This document shows, piece by piece, positions 4,058-17,898 of a DNA stretch of 20,889 bases. The DNA is taken from the NCBI GenBank assembly GCA_937907055.1, contig CALCTW010000072.1:1-20889 (forward strand), read 5' to 3'. This stretch comes from an uncultured Clostridia bacterium. Lineage in GTDB: Bacteria; Bacillota; Clostridia; Christensenellales; Aristaeellaceae. Within the stretch, counting starts at the first letter, position 1; each line of letters begins with the position of its first letter. The position numbers were made by a program, and so were the translations under genes. The notes under the pieces are model-generated. The model searched no databases and was not told where the DNA came from. It saw only the letters and a program-made list of their open reading frames with translations.

Positions 4058-5527
4058 ATGATGAAGAAATTTATATTTTGCGTTCTTATCCTATTGGCGG
4101 TCTTTCTGCCGGTCTGCGCGGTCTACGCGGAGGGCGGCTATATCGAGTTTATGCCGCAGGTCGTTGCGGATCAATTGGAAAAACTCGGTGTCCGCAAGGA
4201 AAACTATGAGGACATCGTGATCTTGGATCAGGTAGAAACCTCCGATTGCCGGTCTCATCTTTTTGTGCTGGCCGGTAATGACGGCACACATCACACCGTC
4301 TATCATTTCACCAACATCGAGACCGATGAAAACGCCTATCTTCACTGGGTATATCAGGCGTGCTATGATCAGCTGGCACCGCAGGGAGAAGGAACGGTTT
4401 GTTTTTACAGGCATGAGCATTATGACCGCTATGGTGAAAACGGAAATGTGCAGCTTTATGATGACCCCAATGGGTTCATGATCTATCGGATCGATCCCGA
4501 GGATCCCGAGACATATATTCAGGGCGTCAATGTGCATGTGATCGATCGGCAATTTCAGATCATGGCATGGTTTGACAAGAGCGTTTCCCCGGTCTGCAGC
4601 GCTTATATTCAGAATGGAAAGCTGCATTATGGTGATAACGAAACCGGAAAAAGCTATGGAACGGTGAAATTGTATCGTGTTTTTGATCTGAATGTCGCCT
4701 TCAGCAGTCTGCCCAAGACCTATCGGAAGGCTTCGGAGAAGTATACCGATCCTGCCGCGATCCCACACGGTGAACTTAAGGCGGAGCTGGTCAAATTCGT
4801 ATCAAACAAAAAGTACGCGGTTTATTCCGCACCGGATCAGAACTCGCTTCGGGCGGCCAAGGGAAAGGCTGTGGTTTCGACCAATGACTGGATCCAGGTA
4901 TTCGGTCGGGAGAAGGATTGGATCCTGATCCAATATGCCATCGATAAGGATCATTACCGCTTCGGCTATATTTCCGCCGACGCGCTACCCAAGAAAACCA
5001 CTGTGAAGCAGTTGGATCTTCGATATACAAGCGCGTATACGAAAGGCCGCGTATCGGTGACGGATGATCCTTTGTATTCCGGTGCTGAACTGGTCAGCCT
5101 GCCGGAAGGCAGCCGCGTGACATGGCTCGCGACGATGGGCGAATGGGCTTATATCGAGAGCAGTAACGGCGATCGGCTGCGCGGTTTTGTTCCGCTGTCC
5201 GCGCTTCGGACAGAACAGGTGTTTGAATTGCGGAACTATCCGGGTGAAAACGGCCCTGTGTATGACGGTGATCTGATCATCCGCGCCGATCAAACCTTCA
5301 GCGCGTCCTTCACGGTCGTGCAGTCCGGGCCGCTCGGTAATGCCGCTGTGTCCGCTGTGTTTTTGGTCGATCCTGAAGGGAACGCACTGGGGACAGCCGC
5401 GTTCGATGCGCGTGAGAACGATTTCTTTTGTACCGGTGTGATCGATGATTCCGTTACTGTCATCCGCTTCGTTGCCGTCAATGCGGACGGTGATCCGCTG
5501 GATCATTCCGTTTCTGTACAATGGTAA
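4058..5527 (+). CDS. secreted protein with two C-terminal SH3b-like repeats; N-terminal domain unknown
   Basis: A GGAGA RBS precedes the start. The signal peptide is MMKKFIFCVLILLAVFLPVCAVYA. SH3b-like segments include YAVYSAPDQNSLRAAKGKAVVSTNDWIQVFGREKDWILIQY...GYISADAL and RVSVTDDPLYSGAELVSLPEGSRVTWLATMGEWAYIESSNGDRLRGFVPLSAL. The stop is TAA. Confidence 0.75.
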   Translation: MMKKFIFCVLILLAVFLPVCAVYAEGGYIEFMPQVVADQLEKLGVRKENYEDIVILDQVETSDCRSHLFVLAGNDGTHHTVYHFTNIETDENAYLHWVYQACYDQLAPQGEGTVCFYRHEHYDRYGENGNVQLYDDPNGFMIYRIDPEDPETYIQGVNVHVIDRQFQIMAWFDKSVSPVCSAYIQNGKLHYGDNETGKSYGTVKLYRVFDLNVAFSSLPKTYRKASEKYTDPAAIPHGELKAELVKFVSNKKYAVYSAPDQNSLRAAKGKAVVSTNDWIQVFGREKDWILIQYAIDKDHYRFGYISADALPKKTTVKQLDLRYTSAYTKGRVSVTDDPLYSGAELVSLPEGSRVTWLATMGEWAYIESSNGDRLRGFVPLSALRTEQVFELRNYPGENGPVYDGDLIIRADQTFSASFTVVQSGPLGNAAVSAVFLVDPEGNALGTAAFDARENDFFCTGVIDDSVTVIRFVAVNADGDPLDHSVSVQW

Positions 5528-5563: not shown

Positions 5564-7285
5564 ATGAAACGGCTCGTGATGATCGTATTCGGTCTGATGA
5601 TGCTTTGCGTGGCAGCCAAGGCGGATGTTTTTGATCCGGAGGCCTATGCGCGGATCACATTGACGGAACGGTTCGGCTATACGGAGGAAGAGGCGTCACG
5701 ATTTGTTTTTGAAAATAAACAAGAGGGTCTGCTTCAGTATCATGATGCCGATCATGCCGATCGTGTCTATCAACTGACCTATACAGTCAACGGTCCGATC
5801 TGCGCTGTTTCTCCGTATGAAACGGATTTCAGCTCTTATCCCGGTGAATACGCGGTCCGGGACACCCTGCGGCAGGCCGAGAAGGAAAACTGGTTTTCGC
5901 AGTGGAACGCGGAGCATCGTGACGCTTTGCTGGCGTGGATGGATTCCGATCACCACAGCATGATGGTCAGAAGGGCGTTTGAAAACATTCTCTACAGCGA
6001 ATTGACCGATACAGCGCAGGTCATTCAAGGCTTTTTCCTGAATTGCTACGGGGACGAATCGGAATGGTCTCCTGCTTTATACGCGTGGCGGGATGAAGTG
6101 CTGGCGGCTTATGGTATATCACCGGACGCGCTGACTCGTTATCCCGAAGAGGGCATCACGCGCTACAGTATCGTAAAGGGCTTTTATATCGGAAAGACGG
6201 AAGTCTGTGAATTCAAAGGCGTGGTCCCGGATGAATTGACTCCTGTATTTTCACAGGAGTCGAGGCTTGAAGGATGGAACTGTCTTTGCGGTACCGTATT
6301 GCGATTGGATGCTCCGCTCGCGGGCAGGCCGGACGCGTACGGCATGGCGGCCTTTGAAAAAGACGGCGAAAGGATGCTTGTGATCATGGATCATGATCAC
6401 GATCGATGGTATCTCACGTTTCCCGGGAAAAGGTCACTGTATCAGGGCGATGAGCGGGAACTGTCGATCCGGGCGCATGAACTGAGCGGAACGTACTTCG
6501 TTTTGAGCTACAAGGGCACGGAAGGAACTGAATCGTTCTATCTGAGTGTCGTTGCGGAAACGGATGACCTGCTCGGCCATTACGCGCTGTGCCGCGTTGA
6601 ACGCTGTCGGTTGATCTCGGCAGAAGGAAAGGGTACAAGCTGGATCATTCCGGATGAGCCATACGGCAAGTGGACATATATCACACAGAAGGATGATCAT
6701 GTCTCAAAGGAAACGATCACCGTTGATCATCCGTGTTGGCTGGGGCTGCGTGACATGACGGACTTCCCGGTCACGCTCGAAAAAGGAAGGGCGCTTCCGT
6801 CTCCCTTGCCCGATGACTGCCGGATGACGACCGCCGTGCATCTGCGCAGAGATCACAACAGTCATTCTGAGGACATGGGAACGCTGCTTGATGGGACCGT
6901 CATTCGGGTCAAGTCCCGCGTGGCCGGAGATCCGTATGACTGGTTTCAAACGGATATCGGTCTGCTGAAGGGATATGTCAACACGCTGTATACCGATGTT
7001 TCCTTCGGGAATGCCAATCTATCCACGACACGCCCGCTCCCTGTGGCACAGTGCGAAAAAACAATACAATTGAGATCATCGGCCGGCTGGATCAGTACCG
7101 CGGTGGGCGATTTCCCGGCAGGTACAAGGATGCATGTCATCATGCGCCGTGGCGACTGGCTGTATGTCGTTGTTCCGCGCGGCGAGATCGATTGGCTCAT
7201 GGATGTAGACGGCACCTACGGCTGGATCCGCAGGGGAGATGTTCGTGTCGCCGCCATGCCGGTTTATTTGAATACGGAACCATGA
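5564..7285 (+). CDS. secreted protein with C-terminal SH3b-like repeats; N-terminal domains unknown
   Basis: An AAGGAGG RBS precedes the start. The signal peptide is MKRLVMIVFGLMMLCVAAKA. SH3b-like C-terminal segments include AVHLRRDHNSHSEDMGTLLDGTVIRVKSRVAGDPYDWFQTDIGLLKGYV and IQLRSSAGWISTAVGDFPAGTRMHVIMRRGDWLYVVV...GWIRRGDV. The stop is TGA. Confidence 0.75.
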   Translation: MKRLVMIVFGLMMLCVAAKADVFDPEAYARITLTERFGYTEEEASRFVFENKQEGLLQYHDADHADRVYQLTYTVNGPICAVSPYETDFSSYPGEYAVRDTLRQAEKENWFSQWNAEHRDALLAWMDSDHHSMMVRRAFENILYSELTDTAQVIQGFFLNCYGDESEWSPALYAWRDEVLAAYGISPDALTRYPEEGITRYSIVKGFYIGKTEVCEFKGVVPDELTPVFSQESRLEGWNCLCGTVLRLDAPLAGRPDAYGMAAFEKDGERMLVIMDHDHDRWYLTFPGKRSLYQGDERELSIRAHELSGTYFVLSYKGTEGTESFYLSVVAETDDLLGHYALCRVERCRLISAEGKGTSWIIPDEPYGKWTYITQKDDHVSKETITVDHPCWLGLRDMTDFPVTLEKGRALPSPLPDDCRMTTAVHLRRDHNSHSEDMGTLLDGTVIRVKSRVAGDPYDWFQTDIGLLKGYVNTLYTDVSFGNANLSTTRPLPVAQCEKTIQLRSSAGWISTAVGDFPAGTRMHVIMRRGDWLYVVVPRGEIDWLMDVDGTYGWIRRGDVRVAAMPVYLNTEP

Positions 7286-7324: not shown

Positions 7325-7795
7325 ATGCAGAAAGACCAACGACAGCATTTCGCAAACTGGCAGCATCTTTATGATCAGTACGCGACCGATATCCTTCGGA
7401 CCTGTTATCTGCTTTTGAAGGATAAGGACGCGGCGGAGATCGCTGTACAGGAAACTTTCATTCAGATCGGATGCGGAAGCGGATATCTGGCACCGGGAAA
7501 CATGATCAGCGAAAAGGCCTGCCTTCTGCAGATCGCGATGGATCATTGCCGGGGATTATCGGGAAAATCAACGAGCGGATCCCCGGATCTGTATAAAACC
7601 GTCAGTCATGGCGGCGAAGAAGAGCGCCTGCTCAGAGGGATCGTCGGGCTGGATGATAAGCTTCGGCAGACCACTTTGCTTTTCTATTATCAGCAGCTGA
7701 CCATGCGTGAAGTCGCTTACGTGCAGCGCTCCTCGGTGTGGCTCGTAAAGCTTCGCCTCTTTCAGGCGGTCAGGCAATTGCGTATGCTTGCCTGA
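7325..7795 (+). CDS. small sigma-70 family (ECF-like) RNA polymerase sigma factor
   Basis: An AGAGGAG RBS precedes the start. A region-2-like segment is LYDQYATDILRTCYLLLKDKDAAEIAVQETFIQ. A region-4 helix-turn-helix-like segment is LRQTTLLFYYQQLTMREVAYVQRSSVWLVKLRLFQAVRQL. The stop is TGA. Confidence 0.7.
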   Translation: MQKDQRQHFANWQHLYDQYATDILRTCYLLLKDKDAAEIAVQETFIQIGCGSGYLAPGNMISEKACLLQIAMDHCRGLSGKSTSGSPDLYKTVSHGGEEERLLRGIVGLDDKLRQTTLLFYYQQLTMREVAYVQRSSVWLVKLRLFQAVRQLRMLA

Positions 7796-7893: not shown

Positions 7894-9558
7894 ATGAAAA
7901 AGTTGATAATGAAGAAACCGATGATAAAAGAAAAAATGATCTTGCTGCTTGGGCTTCTGCTCCTGTTATTGCCGTTCACAGCCGCAGCAGAATCGAAAAA
8001 GGAGTGGGAATTGACGTGTGATGCCAAACTGGCGGAAAACACGACGATCTATGCGATCGATATCGCGGCGGATGGCACAAAATCGGCGCGGGCGATCGGT
8101 TCTCTTCCGGCGGGTACCTATTTTCGGGTCAACAGCAAAGGGTTTGATGAAGAACTGCAGCTGAAGATGATCCGTTACTATCAGAATGGCGAGCAGAGCG
8201 CTTATATGGCGCGTTCCGCTCCGATCGCCAGTGCTTCCAAGATCATCTGGTTTACAGACGGCACGATGACACATCTTCCGGAAAATGTTGTGGCGGATCC
8301 GGCTGAGTTGCGTTCCTGGCTGAATACCACCTGCCCCGGGCATACGGTTTACGCCATTTCCAATGTCGGACAGGCCAGTCCACTTGAATTTCCTCAGACC
8401 TTTGACGGCACACAGACGACAATTCTCACCTCAGATCAGGCTGCCGCTGTGAATCCGGGCGGAACGCCGCGTCCGTACACCGGCGGCACCGCGAAGGATC
8501 CTTCTGTCAACACATCCGGCTATGTGGAAGGGGAGTGGAACATCAGCACAGAAATCTCTGCTGAAGAACAGGCCTTCAATGCGTCTTGTCCTCATCGCCT
8601 GAAGCGTACGGTCTGGGGCTATTCCGATGCGCATATGACGAGCAAATACGAGAAGATCAATATCGGCACCTATGTGAATATCATGACTGATTTCAACGAT
8701 GTCGTGAAGATCGCCTATTATAAAAACGGTGTGCGCCATACCGCATATGTTGAACGCGTGGATCTTCTGGGGGCTTATACGCAGTATGTTGATCGTCAGG
8801 GAAACGCGCAGACAGTCTATACCGGAGATCCCGATTATGAGGCCATTCTTTCCGGCTGTGAGGTGACCTTTCAGGCAGAGTCCATCACTCAGGGGTTGGA
8901 CACACTGGTGGCAGAAGAGCAGAACAGGAAAAACACGCCTGCCAAAGCTTCTGCTGAATCGAACGGAGCTGCCCATGCTTCGCAGGAGGCCGCAAGCACG
9001 GCATCCGGGAGCGAAGGTGAAAAAGTGGTCGTGAGCAGAGTCGGGGTCTCCACCACAATGATCGCGTATCAGGGTGAAACGATGGAAGTGCGCACCGCGC
9101 AACTTACCTTCAGCAAAAATGTGCCTTCATAGCATAAGGTGGCGGTCATCTACGCGCCTAAAACAGGAAAATGCACATTGCGAAAGAGCGCGTCCACCTC
9201 GTCCGCTGCATTGAAGAAGTGTAAGGCCGGTACGGTCGTCATCGTACTGGAACAGGGCGATAAAACCTGTAAGATCAATGTGAACGGCACCACTGGCTAT
9301 GTGCTGACCTCCTGTCTCAGATTTTATGACGCGAATACGCCCCTTTTGGGGGATGGCCAATTGTCCTATAATGGCAAAACAACGGGAAGAACTACCGTCA
9401 ATGTGCGCAATACACCGGAAAAGGGCAGTGCTGTCATCGGTGATTGGAAAACCGGCACGCAGGTGCAGGTCTTTTCACATGAAAATGGCTGGTATGAGAT
9501 CGAGTATCAGGGTATGCATGGCTATGTTCAGGAAAAATACCTGAATTTTGAGGAATAA
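7894..9558 (+). CDS. secreted multi-SH3b-repeat protein, one frame interrupted only by an in-frame TAG at 9130-9132
   Basis: The signal peptide region is MKKLIMKKPMIKEKMILLLGLLLLLLPFTAAA. Under the standard code the gene splits into 7894-9132 and 9139-9558, which share one frame. The downstream piece (HKVAVIYAPKTGKCTLRKSASTSSAALKKCKAGTVVIVLEQGD... and TVNVRNTPEKGSAVIGDWKTGTQVQVFSHENGWYEIEYQGMHGYVQEKYL) is two classic SH3b repeats. It has no ATG, no spaced RBS and no signal peptide. The final stop is TAA at 9556-9558. Confidence 0.78.
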
Positions 9559-10819: not shown

Positions 10820-10985
10820 CTGTTTTAACAATTTTGTAACATATCAAGCTGAATTTGTCCCCTGTAAACCGGACACGGGAAAGCATCTAAATCGCAGATA
10901 CCGGATGTTATCTCCCGGTTCGTCAGCATGCGACCTGATCGGATCAGTACACTTTGGCATCTGTGTGCATAACGATCAGCTTACC

Positions 10986-11354
10986 CTATGAACCGTCCTC
11001 GTTCCTTATGCCTCCTTCGATCCGTAATCTGTATTCGCCGTTCACGATACCGCTTATCCCGCTTGCAGCCGCGTTTCCGACAAATTGAAGATCGTCCCAT
11101 GTGCAGACTGTGATCCATGATCCGTACACGCGCTTTTGCAGCATGATCCGAATAAAGCTGCCCGTCTGTTTCTGGTCATAGGGCACGATCAAACCGTAAA
11201 TGATAGCATTGAAGTCGCGCAGATCCATATATCCGATGCATTTGTACAGACTATCATAAACGGGATGCTTTTCTGACACTTCACAAAGAACGTTTACGTT
11301 GATCGAAGACATGAGCAGCAGGATCAATAAGAATATCGCAATGATCTTTTTCAT
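10986..11354 (-). CDS. small secreted protein of unknown function (ends at TAG; in-frame extension possible to 10944)
   Basis: An AAGGAG RBS lies 7 nt before ATG (11354-11352). The signal peptide is MKKIIAIFLLILLLMSSINVNVLC. The ORF stops at TAG (10988-10986). Reading through adds GKLIVMHTDAKVY and then TGA at 10946-10944. Confidence 0.6.
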   Translation of the reverse strand: MKKIIAIFLLILLLMSSINVNVLCEVSEKHPVYDSLYKCIGYMDLRDFNAIIYGLIVPYDQKQTGSFIRIMLQKRVYGSWITVCTWDDLQFVGNAAASGISGIVNGEYRLRIEGGIRNEDGS

Positions 11355-11365
11355 AACCAAGCTCC

Positions 11366-12130
11366 TTATTCTTCTGAAACGATGTGGTGAACACTCTGCG
11401 CGATCTGAATGGCGTTTTCAAGATCAATCGGGGATGATACGACAAACCATTTATCATCAACACTCCAGATGATCGTGAACATATTGAATGTGCCCTCTTT
11501 TATTTCGCATTCCTTCTCGATCACAAAAGCCGGATTGCCATTCAGGGTCATATTTGACAGTTGTGCTTCTTTTATGTCTATCAGAAGGTGCGTGTTATCG
11601 TCACATTCATCATAGGAAACGAAACCGGAATTGTCGTTGGAAAAGAGCATTACATTTTTCCCGGTTTCTGATACCCATATCCTATCATATTCCGCCGGTG
11701 TGAAGGCCGGATAGTATTCACCTTTGTAACCTGAGGGCACAGTGAAAACATCGGTAGGTTCAAGGTGAATATTGGCGTAGCCGGAATCAAGACTCATCAC
11801 CAGATTCATGATACTGCTGCGGATATAAGGGTTGCTTGCAACAGCCACAGGTACACCGATGAGGATCCCCATCAGCAGAACGATGATAACCGACATGGTT
11901 TTAACAAGGCGGCTCGTATGTGCGCTGTTTATTCTGTCTGTGTCCGGAGAACGTTTGTCCGAAGCCCGTTTCATCTTCAACCATTGTTGATGCGTGAACT
12001 GAATGGGGGTGATCTCTTCGGCTGTTTCTGTATCCTCGTCCGGGGGTTCGGCTTCATTGATCAGCGACAGACGGATCAATTCGTCCCAAAGCTGATCTTC
12101 TGAATAATCTATTGTTCTTCTTTTGATCAT
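11366..12130 (-). CDS. single-pass membrane protein, DUF4367-like putative anti-sigma factor
   Basis: The start ATG overlaps the stop of the upstream sigma gene (ATGA at 12130-12127). The layout is a cytoplasmic N-terminal region, one TM segment (MSVIIVLLMGILIGVPVAVA), then an extracytoplasmic domain. This is the usual arrangement of Clostridial sigma/anti-sigma pairs. The stop is TAA. Confidence 0.65.
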   Translation of the reverse strand: MIKRRTIDYSEDQLWDELIRLSLINEAEPPDEDTETAEEITPIQFTHQQWLKMKRASDKRSPDTDRINSAHTSRLVKTMSVIIVLLMGILIGVPVAVASNPYIRSSIMNLVMSLDSGYANIHLEPTDVFTVPSGYKGEYYPAFTPAEYDRIWVSETGKNVMLFSNDNSGFVSYDECDDNTHLLIDIKEAQLSNMTLNGNPAFVIEKECEIKEGTFNMFTIIWSVDDKWFVVSSPIDLENAIQIAQSVHHIVSEE

Positions 12131-12687
12131 TCCGCGTCAACCTCCTCCTGTATTTTGATTTGAATCAGCTTCCGTGCGCGTCTGATATATTGATTGATAC
12201 TGTTCGGTGAAAGGCCTGTTCGCTTTGCGATCTCTCGATTGCTCATTCCCAGGATCAGCTTCATACGAAATATCATTTTCATGCTGTCGGGCAAAGCCTG
12301 AACAGCATGCTGCACGTGATTTATCAGTTGCTTGTTTTCAAACACTTCCATCGTGCTGACAGAAGTTTCGTTTAACTGCAATTCTTCCACATTGATGACT
12401 GTCTTTAACTTTCCGCGCTGGGTATGCATGGCGATGGTATCAAGTGAAGTGTTTTTGACAGTTGTCAGTATGTATTGCTTCAAACTTTTTGCAGGCAGTT
12501 TCTTTAATTGATCAATGCGCCTGAATAACCGGACGCAGCTTTCTGAAACAGCATCCTATTCCAAACAATACGCACCGGCATATTTTCTTGCGATCTTCAG
12601 CATGTCGGATCCGTATGTTTCGTATAATTGTTCCATATACAGAATGCTTTCATCATCCTGTGCAGGATCTAAAAACAGCAGTATCAT
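12127..12687 (-). CDS. sigma-70 family (ECF-like) sigma factor, one frame interrupted only by an in-frame TAG at 12558-12556
   Basis: The standard-code ORF 12127-12483 encodes only regions 3/4 (LPDSMKMIFRMKLILGMSNREIAKRTGLSPNSINQYIRRARKLI) and begins at a TTG. The same frame continues upstream: MILLFLDPAQDDESILYMEQLYETYGSDMLKIARKYAGAYCLE[TAG]DAVSESCVRLFRRIDQLKKLPAKSLKQYILTTVKN. This supplies region 2. ATG is at 12687-12685, with AAGGAG 12 nt upstream. The stop is TGA. Confidence 0.72.
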
Positions 12688-12945
12688 TGCCGGGTGTTAC
12701 TCCTTTCGGTAACAAGGTTATCCCTATTCACTATTATATACGATTCTCGTATCAGATCTGTGACTTGTTGGATCGCATTATGTAAAATTTCAGGGAAACT
12801 GTCACATTTCCATGGCAGAATAAGTATAATAGATGAGAACAGCAGTAATTGCATCTTGAAAGGAGGGATTGTGAATCCGATCCTGCTGAAGTTCTCATAC
12901 GAAAACCGCTTGACTTGTAAAATAGCGGAGAGAAGAGGAGAATAC

Positions 12946-13512
12946 ATGAAAAAGGGTGTATTTGGAATTGTAGTTCTTTGTTTGTTGACAATATGTTCAT
13001 TTGCTTATGCGGATTGCAGTGTTTGTGGTGGTAACAACAAAACAACTGTTAATCGTCCGACAAAATGGATTGATGATATTGTTTTTGATACTCATACTCA
13101 ATATTATGTGGTTGACTCTTATTGCGCAGATTGCGGAAATTTTTTAGAAAGCACAACGAAAGAGTACAGAGATAGATCATATGCGCATATTTGGAGTATT
13201 GAATGTATTAACATTACATATCACAATGATACCAACTATCATTGGAAGGAGGGAAAACGGATTAAGCGATGTGAAGCATGCAATAAAATGATTACACTTG
13301 ACGAAAATGTGATCTATGATTCATAGTCTCACTATATGTCATCTTCTTATTTTGAAGATGCAGGGCATATTGGTGCACGACATTACTATGTAGTTATCTG
13401 TGGTAATGTGCATTGCAGTCGTTACTATACGATTTCTATTCCGTGTAAAGGCGGTTCTACACATGTCGCACCACTGTCTGTTGATCCAAATCCCAATACT
13501 GATATACAGTGA
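12946..13512 (+). CDS. small secreted Cys-rich (CxxC-repeat) protein, one frame interrupted only by an in-frame TAG at 13324-13326
   Basis: An AGAGGAG RBS lies 5 nt before ATG 12946. The signal peptide is MKKGVFGIVVLCLLTICSFAYA. Motifs are CSVC, CADC and CEAC before the TAG. After it, 61 more sense codons (62 codons counting the TGA stop) repeat the same theme (HYYVVICGNVHCSRYY versus the earlier QYYVVDSYCADCGN). The stop is TGA at 13510-13512. Confidence 0.68.
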
Positions 13513-13533
13513 TGTATGAAAGAGGTGTCGAAA

Positions 13534-14181
13534 GTGAAAAGGCATGTCGTTTTCTTACTGTGCTTGCTTTATCTTTTTTTGCTTGGCACAGCATTTGCGG
13601 ATCCTGTACCTGCCGATGATGCGCTTGAAAAATAGTTGCGTTATATTGCGGAGATATGGATGGGGGACATCATACCGGAGGAATAGTGCTTTACCGAGAC
13701 TACGGTAAAAGATGAACAGGGGAATACACTTGATGTCGAAGCATATTTATGTTAGGACAAAGACGAAACTACAGGTCAGGAGTATCTTCTGTTTGCGAAA
13801 ATATAGGAAAACAAGACCTCACTGCTCAGAATTTACTTGAACCATCAGAGAATCGAACCTGAGGTGGATGAGACTGCGGCAATTGATGCAGAAACCGCGG
13901 CGAGGCTTTTTTTGCGGATATGCGAACAGAATGAAGCCTTTGGTAACAGAGGTGATATGACACATGAACAATTCTTAAAAGAATGCGATTGCGAACTCTT
14001 TTCACCGGAACAAATGCGGTATACAGATCAGTCATTATGGACAAGCGTCCTGAAAGTTAACGGAACAGAAGGCAGCACGATTGTGGAACTTCTGTGGGAT
14101 GCATCAACGATGAGCATCGAACGTGTTATGTTGATGACAGAATCCCCGGATTCGTTTGCTTTCATACACTTAATGAGGTAA
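13534..14181 (+). CDS. small secreted protein of unknown function whose frame contains four in-frame TAG codons
   Basis: An AAGAGG RBS lies 8 nt before GTG 13534; an in-frame ATG at 13516 is an alternative start. The signal peptide is KRHVVFLLCLLYLFLLGTAFA. The frame is a 215-codon frame plus its TAA stop, with no internal TAA or TGA in AT-rich DNA. TAG codons are at 13633, 13684, 13753 and 13804. The standard-code ORF track shows only 13837-14181. The stop is TAA at 14179-14181. Confidence 0.65.
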
Positions 14182-14298
14182 ATGTGAAGGAACACGAAAT
14201 ATACGATCGACAGATATTGCGTTTGACAGCAATGAGGTTTGAAGTACACATATCTGAATCCGGATTCTCTTGCTTTGAGAGGAAGCCTGTATATTCGT

Positions 14299-14342
14299 AA
14301 AAAACCGAGCCCCCGATGCCGTCTGTTCGGCGTCGGGGGCTC
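14299..14342 (-). terminator. rho-independent terminator of the SulP gene
   Basis: On the minus strand, GAGCCCCCGACGCCG-aacaga-CGGCATCGGGGGCTC is followed by GGTTTTTT. Confidence 0.85.
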
Positions 14343-14363
14343 GTGCTGATCACATATGGATCT

Positions 14364-16067
14364 TCAGTTTTTATCATCCTGCGCGGCGAGGATCGCTTCG
14401 GCACGGGTGAAGGCGGCATCGATATTGGGGCAGAAGTTTTCCGCGCCCACTTCCTCACGGAAGCCGTACTTGACCATGGTCAGCATGGGCTGCTCGTTTA
14501 CGTGAGAGAGCACCAGCGTGATCCCGGCCTTCTTGCACTGCTCCTGCAGGTTCTGCAGCGCGATCATGGCGGTCACATCCAGCGAGGGCACGGCGCGCAT
14601 ACGCAGGATCAGCACCTTGGTCACATCACGGGTGGTGATCTGGTTCAGTCTGTCGGAAACGCCGAAGAACAGCGGGCCGCTGATCTCATACACGCGCACA
14701 GCCTGCGGCACGTCGCGCAGCTCCTTGCCGTTTTCATCGGTCTTTTCGTCATAGTGCCAGTTCTTTACGCTGAATTCGCTGGTCAGATGCTTCACCAGCA
14801 GCACCAGCGCGGCCACCAGGCCCACCTCGATGGCGACCACCAGGTCAAATACCACCGTCAGGATGAAGGTGATCACCAGCACCAGAATATCGGCCAGAGG
14901 AGCCTTCTTTACGATCCTGACCACGGTACGCCAGCCGCTCATGTTATAGGCCACCTGGAACAGGATGGCGGCAATGACCGGCATGGGGATCATGGCAGCA
15001 TAGGGGATGAGCAGCAGCAGCACCAGCACCAGCACCAGCGCGTGCACGATACCGGCAATGGGGGTGCGGCCGCCGTTCTTGATGTTGGCCGCGGTACGGG
15101 CGATGGCGCCGGTGGCGGGGATACCGCCGAACAGCGCGCTGCCCATGTTGCCGATACCCTGCGCGATCAGCTCCTGATTGGGGTTGTGCTTGGCGCCGAT
15201 CATGCCGTCAGCCACCACGCAGCTCAGCAGGCTCTCAATGGCCGCCAGCACCGCGATGGTCAGACCGTCGCTGAACTCGGCGCTGATCATATCAAAGGAC
15301 AGGGCAGGGAAGTGGAAGGCGGGCAGACCGGGCTCAATGGTGTACAGGTCGCCGATCGTCTTGACAGGCAGACCGGCCAGCTTGACCACCAGAATACCGG
15401 CCACGACCGCGATCAGGGAGCCCGGGATCGGGATCTTCTTGCAGATCTTCGGCCAGAAAATGAGGATCAGCAGCGCGAACACGCCCACCGCGACAGCCCA
15501 CAGATTGATGGAGCCGATGTTTTTAAAGAAGACCACCAGCTTTTCCACGGTCTCCACAGGCTTTTCGGCATAGGTGACACCGAAGAAATCCTTAAACTGA
15601 CCGATCAGGATGGTCACGGCGATACCGGCGGTGAAACCGGTGGTGATCGTGAACGGGATGAACTTGATCAGCGAACCCACGCGGCAGAGGCCCATAATGA
15701 TCAGCAGCACACCGGCGATGATGGTGGCAATGATCAGACCGTTCATGCCGTTCCGGGCGATGATCCCGGCTACGATGGTGGCAAACGCGGCGGTCGGACC
15801 GGCGATCTGCACCTTGCTGCCGCCGAAGAAGGCAATCAGGAAGCCCGCGACGATGGCAGTGTAGATACCCTCCTGCGGGCCCACACCGCTGGCCAGCGCC
15901 AGCGCGATGGAAAGCGGCAGCGCGATGATCGCGACGATGATGCCGCTGATGATGTCCCGGGAGAGCTGCTTGCCGTTATAGCCCTTCATGCTCAGGAACA
16001 GCTCCGGAATCAGGGGCTGCTTCTTCTCACCGGAAGTCTTGGTCTTTTTCTTGTTCAGGATGCTCAT
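14364..16067 (-). CDS. SulP-family inorganic anion (sulfate/bicarbonate-type) transporter with a C-terminal STAS domain
   Basis: The long ORF has many TM segments and SulP-like sequence (GIIVAIIALPLSIALALASG, GGSKVQIAGPTAAFA). The STAS-like C-terminus is VRVYEISGPLFFGVSDRL...VLILRMRAVPSLDVTAMIALQNL. I chose the start ATG at 16067-16065 (MSILNKKK...) because a GAGGGG RBS precedes it. The ORF track start at 16154 has none. The stop is TGA. Confidence 0.9.
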   Translation of the reverse strand: MSILNKKKTKTSGEKKQPLIPELFLSMKGYNGKQLSRDIISGIIVAIIALPLSIALALASGVGPQEGIYTAIVAGFLIAFFGGSKVQIAGPTAAFATIVAGIIARNGMNGLIIATIIAGVLLIIMGLCRVGSLIKFIPFTITTGFTAGIAVTILIGQFKDFFGVTYAEKPVETVEKLVVFFKNIGSINLWAVAVGVFALLILIFWPKICKKIPIPGSLIAVVAGILVVKLAGLPVKTIGDLYTIEPGLPAFHFPALSFDMISAEFSDGLTIAVLAAIESLLSCVVADGMIGAKHNPNQELIAQGIGNMGSALFGGIPATGAIARTAANIKNGGRTPIAGIVHALVLVLVLLLLIPYAAMIPMPVIAAILFQVAYNMSGWRTVVRIVKKAPLADILVLVITFILTVVFDLVVAIEVGLVAALVLLVKHLTSEFSVKNWHYDEKTDENGKELRDVPQAVRVYEISGPLFFGVSDRLNQITTRDVTKVLILRMRAVPSLDVTAMIALQNLQEQCKKAGITLVLSHVNEQPMLTMVKYGFREEVGAENFCPNIDAAFTRAEAILAAQDDKN

Positions 16068-16125
16068 GGTGTACCCCTCAGTGTATACACGATTCACGCG
16101 CGTACGCACGCGCGCGGCGTCCGTT

Positions 16126-16154
16126 ATTATAGCACCAAGCTTTCCCTCAAACAA
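16126..16154 (-). promoter_or_regulatory. candidate extended -10 promoter for the SulP gene
   Basis: The minus strand reads TTGTTT, a 17-nt spacer, then TGcTATAAT (TATAAT = 16131-16126). Confidence 0.45.
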
Positions 16155-16664
16155 TCACACAATTCTGGTCATTTTTTCGCCATATCCGTGGTTCTCCGGG
16201 CGCGTTTTCCTGCCGGGATCCTGATCCCTTTTCGTCGCGTCGGTTGCTTCAGCGTATCCCGGATCGCGCGTCATGCAGCGTTGCTCTGATCAGCGGCGGT
16301 TTGAGGATAGGAATGATCCTTTCAATCGATTCCGTGCCGCCGCAGACCTTGACCTTATTCTGATGATGATAAACGGAGTATCCCGGTACCGCGTGAGATC
16401 GCACATCGTCATCGGCACGTCCTTGCCCGCGCGTTGCTCCCGGTGAAGATCTTTTCATCCGGCCGCGGATCGCTTTACCCGGAAGCATCTGTTCTTCACG
16501 ATCATGGGGGAGGTCTCGTGCTCCCCATTCCGTTCACCTCCGTTTACCCACCTCCCAGATCCATGCTGTATACCGCGGCCGATTGATCCGGCTGTTTTCT
16601 GTGATCCTGTATGCGCTTTTTCCCGGATTTTCAGGGCTTTTGCGTGCTGATAAATGAACTCTTC

Positions 16665-16754: not shown

Positions 16755-16831
<77 letters not shown>

Positions 16832-16834
16832 TAT

Positions 16835-16911
16835 GGCTCCGTAGCTCAGCTGGCTAGAGCATTCGGTTCATACCCGGAGTGTCATCTGTTCGAATCAGAT
16901 CGGAGCCACCA
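16835..16911 (+). tRNA. elongator tRNA-Met (anticodon CAU), CCA encoded; lysidine-modified tRNA-Ile2 not formally excluded
   Basis: The cloverleaf has acceptor GGCTCCG/CGGAGCC, D-arm GCTC-AGCTGGCTA-GAGC, anticodon stem TTCGG/CCGGA with loop TTCATAC, and T-arm ATCTG-TTCGAAT-CAGAT. Confidence 0.85.
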
Positions 16912-16914
16912 TTT

Positions 16915-16987
16915 GGGGCATTAGCGCAGTTGGTAGCGCACAACACTGGCAGTGTTGGGGTCAGGAGTTCGAATCTCCTATGCTCCA
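16915..16987 (+). tRNA. tRNA-Ala (anticodon GGC), no encoded CCA
   Basis: The cloverleaf has acceptor GGGGCAT/ATGCTCC containing the G3:U70 alanine identity pair. The anticodon stem is CAACA/TGTTG with loop CTGGCAG, and the T-arm is AGGAG-TTCGAAT-CTCCT. The discriminator A is followed by TAA. Confidence 0.92.
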
Positions 16988-16992
16988 TAAGC

Positions 16993-17118: not shown

Positions 17119-17898
17119 GTGAGGACGAAATACCCTATCGTGCTTGTGCATGGACTTGGCATGAAAAGCCTGCCTTTTCTGCGCGCTTTCGGCCGTATTG
17201 ACCGCATACTGCGAATCCAAGGATATACGGTTTATGTGAGCCGCATTGACGCTATGGGCTCTGTCGAAACGAACGCACAGAAGTTAAAAGAAGAGATTGA
17301 TTCCATCCTTCTTGAAACCGGCTCCAAAAAAGTCAACATCATCGCTCATTCCAAGGGCGGACTTGACGCGAAGTATATGATGAGCGCGCTTGGAATGATG
17401 GAGCATGTCGCATCCTTTACCACGCTTTGTACGCCTCATGCCGGTTCTCCCATCGCTTCGTTCGTACTTCGCTTTCCAGACATACTGCTTCGTTACGCAG
17501 CTTTCTGGGTCAACTTCGCCTATCGTATTTTAGGCGACAAGCATCCCGACTGCTTGGCAGCGTGCCGTCAGCTTCGCCGGGTTTCGGGCAATGAAAAAAC
17601 GGAATTGCAGGGCGTGTTTTGCCAAAGCTTCTCTTCTGCCATTTCTGAGAAGGAGAAGCATTTTGACTTCGTGATGGGAATTCCCGCGTTTTTGTCACGC
17701 ATGATTGAGAAGAATTCTCTTACGGACGGACTCGTTCCGCGCGATTCCGCCGTCTTCGGGCAATACCGTGGCGATTGTATCGACGGTTCGGTCAGTCATA
17801 CGGAAATCATCGACTTCATGGTGCGCGACAAATACCGGGATCGCGTATTTACATTTTATTCCACTCTCTGCGAAGAACTGTCAAAGATGGGATATTAG
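17119..17898 (+). CDS. alpha/beta-hydrolase, lipase/esterase-like (GxSxG-type nucleophile elbow AHSKGG)
   Basis: An AAGGAG RBS precedes GTG 17119. The N-terminus YPIVLVHGLGMKS (oxyanion-hole type) and IIAHSKGGLDAKY are typical of small bacterial lipases. The ORF ends at TAG 17896-17898. Here TAG looks like a genuine stop (see findings). Confidence 0.75.
   Translation: MRTKYPIVLVHGLGMKSLPFLRAFGRIDRILRIQGYTVYVSRIDAMGSVETNAQKLKEEIDSILLETGSKKVNIIAHSKGGLDAKYMMSALGMMEHVASFTTLCTPHAGSPIASFVLRFPDILLRYAAFWVNFAYRILGDKHPDCLAACRQLRRVSGNEKTELQGVFCQSFSSAISEKEKHFDFVMGIPAFLSRMIEKNSLTDGLVPRDSAVFGQYRGDCIDGSVSHTEIIDFMVRDKYRDRVFTFYSTLCEELSKMGY

Follow-up and report, generated by a model that had tools for sequence, protein, structure and literature searches.

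Conserved in-frame stop codons and the amber codon of an SH3b gene

Orthologous in-frame stop codons are found in bacterial genes for which the ratio of nonsynonymous to synonymous substitution rates (dN/dS) is below 1 on both sides of the stop, and they have been read as sites of read-through that lowers expression instead of as signs of pseudogenization (Belinky et al. 2021, PMC7918605). Such conserved stops are mostly short-lived, with 71% of pairs lacking any mismatch within 30 nt (PMC7918605). The current study concerns a gene of an uncultured Clostridia bacterium (GenBank assembly GCA_937907055.1, contig CALCTW010000072.1), encoded on a stretch of DNA of 20,889 nt that we refer to in its entirety as the window. 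Within this gene, an in-frame amber codon (TAG) at 9130-9132 separates a 412-codon secreted protein from two bacterial SH3 (SH3b) domains. Like the described class of genes, it carries a stop that is common to related genomes and it exhibits purifying selection on both sides of that stop. Unlike most members of the class, its TAG is present in strains differing at about 1.2-2.2% of positions and is hence unusually persistent. There are also about 0.12 segregating synonymous sites per synonymous site, and the TAGs are clustered, with two or three more found in 21 kb. The locus fits the known class of conserved in-frame stops read as read-through, with TAGs that are unusually persistent and clustered.

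Several other systems in which UAG is decoded also invite comparison. In E. coli, the amber suppressors supE and supF decode UAG partially, such that amber-bearing genes are functional and UAG still ends others, with the tolerance extending genome-wide and allowing amber codons to accumulate. By analogy, the amber-bearing genes described here may be functional while UAG still terminates elsewhere. However, the 21-kb window encodes no suppressor tRNA, and we found no description in the literature of natural population-wide suppressor backgrounds in gut Clostridia. Pyrrolysine (Pyl) recoding similarly confers a dual meaning upon UAG in organisms still using it as a stop, but the interrupted genes here (SH3b, YkuD, a Cys-rich protein and BlaR1) include no methylamine methyltransferase or known Pyl family, and the residues opposite the TAGs are Glu or Asp in loops rather than a catalytic Pyl site. 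TAG is also recoded to Gln in gut phages using genetic code 15 (bioRxiv 10.1101/2021.08.26.457843). As in these phages, in-frame TAGs occur here in otherwise intact genes from gut metagenomes. In contrast, the window is an ordinary bacterial chromosome segment (PPDK, tRNAs, SulP, a two-component system and BlaI/BlaR1), a viral scan yielded no relatives of the SH3b family, and the residues opposite the TAGs are D/E/G/V/S (SH3b), E/H (YkuD) and E (Cys-rich protein) rather than Q.

Translation of 7894-9558 on the forward strand yields 412 codons (7894-9129), the TAG, a further 141 codons and a TAA (9556-9558), the last two together spanning 9133-9558; if the TAG is read, the gene comprises 554 codons. 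This confirms the position of the TAG, the shared frame and the read-through length reported in the initial annotation. The two open reading frames (ORFs) concerned, 7894-9132 (412 aa) and 9139-9558 (139 aa from a GTG), lie in the same frame, and the junction reads AAT GTG CCT TCA TAG CAT AAG GTG GCG GTC. As had also been reported, the upstream product begins with a signal peptide (about 7894-7989) and the downstream piece has none. The signal peptide is a typical one, which can be read off the sequence as a K-rich N-region, an L-rich core and AAA|E, and it appears as a helix at residues 11-25 in an AlphaFold2 (AF2) model of the fused protein (mean pLDDT 76.6). In the model, residues from about 44 to 157 and from about 212 to 347 form two modules rich in beta strands, which are followed by a disordered linker (348-374) and a small module of three strands (376-400). 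The TAG, residue 413 of the fused protein, falls within a loop (406-415) leading from this last module to the first SH3b-1 strand (416-419, AVIY), and the identity of any inserted residue should therefore matter little. Beyond the loop are two modules of five to six strands each (416-478 and 486-551), which Foldseek matched to the SH3b nuclear magnetic resonance structures 2kt8 and 2krs. The profile of the bacterial SH3 domain (Pfam SH3_3, PF08239) likewise matches 9133-9555 in two stretches (E 1.5e-21, 76.8 bits vs. a cut-off of 27), placing SH3b-1 at about 9139-9327 and SH3b-2 at about 9349-9546; the two downstream repeats originally described are thus upheld. The same description had extended SH3b-like repeats to the upstream part as well, where it fares less well. 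The beta-rich modules and the best Foldseek match, a multi-SH3b amidase model with a low TM-score, are consistent with it, but residues 1-412 have no Pfam or NCBIfam match. Tandem C-terminal SH3b domains on a secreted protein are also known from EntFM/EntA-D of B. cereus, YrvJ of B. subtilis and the cell-wall-binding domains of endolysins, and NCBIfam models match the downstream part below threshold in the SH3 regions of EntFM/EntA-D, with scores so far below the cut-offs that the resemblance is at the domain level only. Unlike EntFM/EntA-D and YrvJ, the protein contains no recognizable catalytic domain, its N-terminal 412 residues being without a Pfam or NCBIfam model. Together with the alignment of full-length homologues described below, these features indicate that 7894-9558 is one gene, encoding a secreted, probably cell-wall-binding multi-SH3b protein.

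A search with the fused sequence returned 37 relatives, the best full-length ones of which (P0002-P0007) are single chains of 486-532 aa exhibiting 35-54% identity over 95-99% of the 554 residues. The downstream frame is 46-59% identical to the C-terminal part of the single-chain relatives. Every aligned homologue continues through the junction as an unbroken ...VPE-x-K-x-AVIYAPxTGKC..., and the column opposite the TAG is variable (D, E, G, V or S), with the majority acidic. When the junction region was compared by tblastn to 18 loci from metagenome-assembled genomes (MAGs) of other Clostridia of the ruminant and human gut, a stop was present in 0/18. The loci of P0003, P0049 and P0309, which were compared for sister-species synteny at codon 9130, were not syntenic. 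Judged from these sequence comparisons, the TAG-joined arrangement is far beyond chance. The initial annotation had named two observations that would speak against a joined gene, namely homologues consistently terminating at ...KNVPS and the occurrence of the two-SH3b unit as an independent gene. We found no homologue of the former type, and neither the fused-sequence search nor the 18 Clostridia MAG loci revealed a stand-alone two-SH3b gene outside the source species.

It had likewise been pointed out that the GTG at 9139 directly adjoins AAGG without a spacer and that no ATG is found near the start of the downstream ORF. Both are correct, and the calculated Shine-Dalgarno (SD) pairing agrees: it is +0.8 kcal/mol at GTG 9139, as compared to -5.7 to -12.5 kcal/mol for real starts in the window, whereas a genuine SD (-6.1 kcal/mol) precedes the ATG at 7894. 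The TTG at 9178, which some gene callers select as a start, has an SD of -4.3 kcal/mol, a value reached by 35% of internal positions. The only in-frame ATG of the downstream piece lies near its C-terminus, and no promoter- or terminator-like site was found between the two parts. An Rfam scan likewise detected no element apart from three tRNAs. Hence, the marks of a split gene, a start of its own with a ribosome-binding site and homologues encoded as separate genes, were not encountered. With neither a ribosome-binding site nor a signal peptide downstream of the TAG, both independent expression and a dead pseudogene fit poorly.

The TAG itself is fixed among the available strains. It is found in six strain-level sequences (the window, L001/L002, L003, L004, L005 and L006), which differ pairwise at 20-37 of 1650 positions; the five strain loci other than the window derive from independent assemblies and all carry CCTTCATAGCATAAGGTG. 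These sequences represent at least five independent samples or projects (ERZ27247138/ERR6929694, GCA_045628485.1, SRR14246005, SRR14246008 and SRR21151017, in addition to the window). All members (6/6) of the 90% cluster containing the upstream product end at the TAG, and the downstream ORF forms a separate cluster of six members. No intact near-identical allele (≥90% identity) exists in a collection of 5.8 billion clustered proteins, nor did two JGI metagenome scans with junction patterns bearing NNN at the TAG reveal one. Such conservation of an in-frame stop among related genomes is expected of a functional read-through gene.

The same six strains reveal how the two parts have been evolving. 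Upstream of the TAG (407 codons) there are 38 synonymous and 13 nonsynonymous variable codons, and downstream of it (141 codons) there are 11 synonymous and 3 nonsynonymous ones, the latter all conservative (K/R, K/R and Q/R), with 0 indels and 0 new stops. The ratio of nonsynonymous to synonymous polymorphism per site (pN/pS) is about 0.08 downstream (96 synonymous and 327 nonsynonymous sites) and 0.10 upstream. When the observed substitutions were re-dealt to random positions of the same base, thereby matching the mutation type, the permutation mean was 5.4 synonymous changes, as compared to the 12/15 observed downstream (P = 2e-4); 15 random substitutions would also be expected to create 0.56 new stops. 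The downstream frame is therefore under purifying selection in stop-bearing lineages, as is expected of read-through, and the typical marks of a pseudogene, a dN/dS of about 1 and secondary disabling mutations, are both absent from the six strains. Since this synonymous excess occurs in strains that already carry the TAG, the downstream codons have been kept protein-coding after the TAG arose, which argues that they would still be translated within a useful protein.

Further in-frame TAG codons in the window

The SH3b gene is not the only interrupted gene of the window. A YkuD L,D-transpeptidase gene (1090-1788, + strand), recognized from Pfam YkuD and its homologues, is interrupted by a TAG at 1579-1581 (GAA TAG ATG), such that one ORF (1090-1581, 163 aa) ends in the TAG and an in-frame ATG directly after it opens the remainder (1582-1788). 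The fused product matches Pfam YkuD in a single stretch (residues 91-227) that spans the TAG (residue 164), with the catalytic His and Cys both encoded downstream of it. More than 200 YkuD homologues, each an uninterrupted chain of about 230 aa, read GE[EH]M at this point, and the 86%-identical homologue of locus L030 has GAA GAG ATG in place of GAA TAG ATG. The TAG is kept in all strain loci (4 strain sequences), and the corresponding cluster contains seven distinct 163-aa truncated forms. Among the TAG-bearing strains, 31/31 substitutions upstream of the TAG and 6/7 of those downstream of it are synonymous, and one polymorphic site lies as close as 6 nt to the stop. As the upstream ORF encodes half a domain devoid of the catalytic residues, this pattern of selection would require that the full-length protein is made.

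A third TAG (13324-13326; GAT TCA TAG TCT) interrupts a 189-codon gene (12946-13515, + strand) that encodes a small secreted protein rich in Cys. Its ORF 12946-13326 ends in the TAG, and 62 more open codons follow. An exhaustive profile search identified the homologue P0290 (189 aa), which aligns end to end at 57% identity (E 3e-69), with the best conserved part located after the TAG and a Glu opposite the TAG itself. The same TAG occurs in a second strain (L033), whereas strains L004 and L005 lack the entire 595-bp segment (12940-13534) filled by this gene. Between the two strains, the upstream part has accumulated 5 nonsynonymous vs. 1 synonymous changes, and a test for internal repeats in the extension was not significant. 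The protein P0296 was considered as an intact Q allele of this gene and was rejected, because its DNA (L033 182-748, on a 1.1-kb contig) has the TAG; the Q stems from the TAG-read-as-Gln table of the source pipeline. Database proteins can thus hide in-frame stops via the translation table of a gene caller. In a single strain, L003 (GCA_045628485.1), a TAG additionally interrupts the BlaR1/M56 sensor gene at L003 2225-2227 (about 2763-2765 of the window), where the other strains have GAG. This BlaR1 allele has diverged strongly, differing at 19% of its first 600 nt.

In total, there are three homology-verified in-frame TAGs among the approximately 20 genes of the window, two of them going beyond the single gene highlighted in the initial annotation, and all four interruptions including that of L003 are TAG (TAA 0, TGA 0). 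Three amber interruptions greatly exceed what would be expected from ordinary gene decay, and selection has been kept in the two genes in which it could be assessed. A scan of all six frames for stops with a long open stretch on either side proved too noisy to serve as a control. TAG does nonetheless end a gene of the same window. The lipase gene at 17119-17898 terminates in TAG, 10/10 variants of its cluster are 259 aa long, and the next in-frame stop is reached only after 128 codons that run antisense through a gene for a response regulator. Suppression is consequently not efficient everywhere. Complete reassignment of TAG was rejected as an explanation, since the lipase would gain a 128-codon antisense extension.

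Some further TAGs and their surroundings were also recorded. On the minus strand, the ORF of a secreted 122/124-aa protein (10986-11360) ends in a TAG followed by 13 open codons (GKLIVMHTDAKVY) and a TGA; this extension is invariant in five strains, making the TAG a candidate further read-through site. The heptamer T-TCA-TAG is present at 3/5 ORF-ending TAGs of the window (9126-9132, 13320-13326 and 10986-10992 on the minus strand), a coincidence of about 3e-3 when calculated post hoc. Overall, TCATAG is not enriched (12 found vs. 8.2 expected). The base following the TAG is G at two apparently genuine stops and A, C, T and A at the read-through candidates.

Read-through of UAG and its competing explanations

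Based upon these features, we consider partial translational read-through of UAG to be the best explanation, and a reasonably probable one. Most ribosomes would probably terminate at the UAG of the SH3b gene, thereby releasing a protein of 412 residues that lacks both C-terminal SH3b domains, and a functionally relevant fraction would read the UAG to yield the full 554-residue protein. Presumably, read-through is a property of the organism rather than of the site, most likely reflecting either leaky termination by release factor 1 (RF1) or an amber-suppressing tRNA, because two further genes in 21 kb and a fourth in one strain carry selected in-frame TAGs. Taken together, the pattern suggests that amber codons are tolerated or suppressed throughout the species. 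As for the proposal of the initial annotation that read-through creates a single secreted multi-SH3b protein, the single gene, the conserved TAG and the selection downstream of it are all borne out, whereas the passage of ribosomes beyond the TAG and its means are what we infer from them. Since the TAG separates the wall-binding domains exactly from the rest of the protein, the level of read-through would set the amounts of anchored and released protein. If read-through is real, current annotation splits functional genes, with the SH3b gene appearing as a hypothetical protein of 412 aa next to an orphan SH3 protein and YkuD divided in two, and the organism would constitute a natural case of long-lived amber suppression. 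With three amber-interrupted genes in 21 kb that are all still under selection, this wild gut bacterium would also provide a cheap test bed for a suppressor tRNA, a weakened RF1 or an intermediate stage of stop reassignment.

Several observations weigh against read-through. Firstly, no suppressor tRNA is encoded in the window, and the RNA after the SH3b TAG exhibits no unusual structure (z = 0.07) and hence no stimulatory element. Secondly, the lipase gene still ends in TAG. Thirdly, all of the affected genes encode accessory secreted or membrane proteins, for which loss of function is easily tolerated. Fourthly, the sample is small, consisting of 6 strains and 15 downstream substitutions. Lastly, a stretch of 157 nt around the SH3b TAG (9040-9195) is free of polymorphism among the six strains, whereas variable sites are ~24 nt apart on average. 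A recent recombinational sweep of a null allele could have left such a footprint, or alternatively the stretch could reflect local constraint.

A particular form of read-through, in which a cognate tRNA recodes UAG as a dual-meaning codon, is unlikely, though the least unlikely of the alternatives. The inserted residue would be Pyl, via a pyl system, or a standard residue carried by a tRNA with a CUA anticodon, perhaps Glu. The recurrence of in-frame TAGs in about 20 genes, none of them TAA or TGA, would be accounted for in this way, as would the counterparts of the TAGs, which are Glu in YkuD (GAG in L030), P0290 (E) and BlaR1 (GAG) and mostly D/E in the SH3b family. From the strains' own mutation spectrum, in which 81% of changes are transitions, TAGs are predicted to originate from CAG (48%) and TGG (26%) and only 10% of the time from GAG. 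Glu insertion at UAG is therefore a lead suggested by the alignments, but the 3-4 sites upon which the association depends vary in quality, as they involve divergent alleles and distant homologues. Furthermore, the window has no CUA-anticodon tRNA, TAG terminates the lipase gene, no conserved housekeeping gene of the window contains a TAG, none of the interrupted genes is related to methylamine methyltransferases, and no RNA structure follows the SH3b TAG. The stop codon reassignments known in bacteria to date all affect UGA (PMC8629427), and we found no bacterial UAG reassignment in the literature. It is conceivable, though on present evidence also unlikely, that a dedicated tRNA, plausibly for Glu, decodes UAG ambiguously, with ambers spreading into accessory genes at former GAG positions and UAG still ending other genes; if true, this would represent the ambiguous intermediate stage of UAG reassignment in a free-living bacterium. 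In a milder version, the domain-boundary TAG may act as a programmed switch that determines the ratio of released 412-aa to wall-anchored 554-aa protein.

Another possibility, which we regard as rather improbable, is that the interrupted SH3b gene is a loss-of-function allele (a pseudogene), possibly an adaptive one, with the downstream signal of selection resulting from recombination with functional alleles or from the small sample. The affected genes are accessory secreted or membrane protein genes in a variable region with presence/absence polymorphisms. There is redundancy as well: the SH3b family is multi-copy in related genomes, and the neighbors at 4058-5527 and 5564-7285 encode similar SH3b-tailed proteins. 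The monomorphic stretch around the SH3b TAG, the nonsynonymous excess in the upstream part of the Cys-rich gene and the restriction of the BlaR1 TAG to one strain and a divergent allele are all compatible with gene loss. However, recombination requires a donor, and no intact allele of ≥90% identity exists among the 5.8 billion clustered proteins. The synonymous excess downstream equals that upstream, the six strains have acquired no secondary frameshift or stop, and 37/38 YkuD substitutions are synonymous, one of them 6 nt from the TAG. Frameshifts are a commoner pseudogenizing lesion than nonsense codons, yet all four lesions are TAG nonsense codons and none is a frameshift.

More doubtful still is a fission of the gene, in which termination at the TAG is followed by reinitiation at GTG 9139 or TTG 9178 to yield a secreted 412-aa protein and a cytoplasmic two-SH3b protein, each of them functional. 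The arrangement has some appeal, as a start-type codon lies 6 nt past the SH3b TAG, the YkuD TAG is followed at once by ATG in the classic configuration for coupling, and gene callers annotate downstream products of 139 aa or 126 aa. Purifying selection on both parts would be compatible with two functional proteins as well. Despite this, no SD is present at 9139 or at the YkuD ATG 1582 (-2.1 kcal/mol), and that of TTG 9178 is at background level. Moreover, the GTG and ATG are pre-existing codons of their families, corresponding to conserved Val/Leu and Met residues. SH3b domains act outside of the cell, whereas reinitiation would leave wall-binding domains in the cytoplasm for lack of a signal peptide, and other species provide no stand-alone two-SH3b homologue. 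Nor would reinitiation rescue YkuD, in which one catalytic domain is cut and its halves would end up on opposite sides of the membrane. Lastly, a sequencing or assembly artefact, for which we found no supporting point, can be dismissed, since the same TAG occurs with different linked polymorphisms in independent assemblies.

Neighboring features

Directly upstream of the SH3b gene, 7325-7795 (+ strand) encodes an extracytoplasmic function (ECF)-type sigma factor, as indicated by sub-threshold NCBIfam sigma-factor matches; this neighbor is present in all strain loci and is noted here as genomic context only. Further upstream, the window (4058-5527) and L025 both contain a gene for a secreted protein of 489 aa that ends in an SH3b-like tail at its C-terminus. 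L001 and L003 have lost this gene except for its last ~37 codons, which follow BlaR1. Downstream of the lower-GC island described below, a cluster of tRNA genes at 16755-16988 comprises Met(CAT), Met(CAT) and Ala(GGC), none of which reads a stop codon. Searches for further genome sequence of the species yielded little: a PPDK fragment matched only conserved, partial sequences of many Clostridia and nothing at the species level, the histidine kinase returned no record, and the 163-aa YkuD form led to a single 4.9-kb contig. A 657-aa ORF at 14316-16289 (+ strand), rich in His, Asp, Gly and Arg, is antisense to a SulP/STAS transporter gene (14364-16154, minus strand) and is almost certainly spurious. 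The region 10900-14300 is a low-GC (36-46%) variable island containing strain indels and genes for small secreted proteins, and it also harbors a sigma factor gene (12127-12483) paired with a gene for a DUF4367 anti-sigma-like protein.

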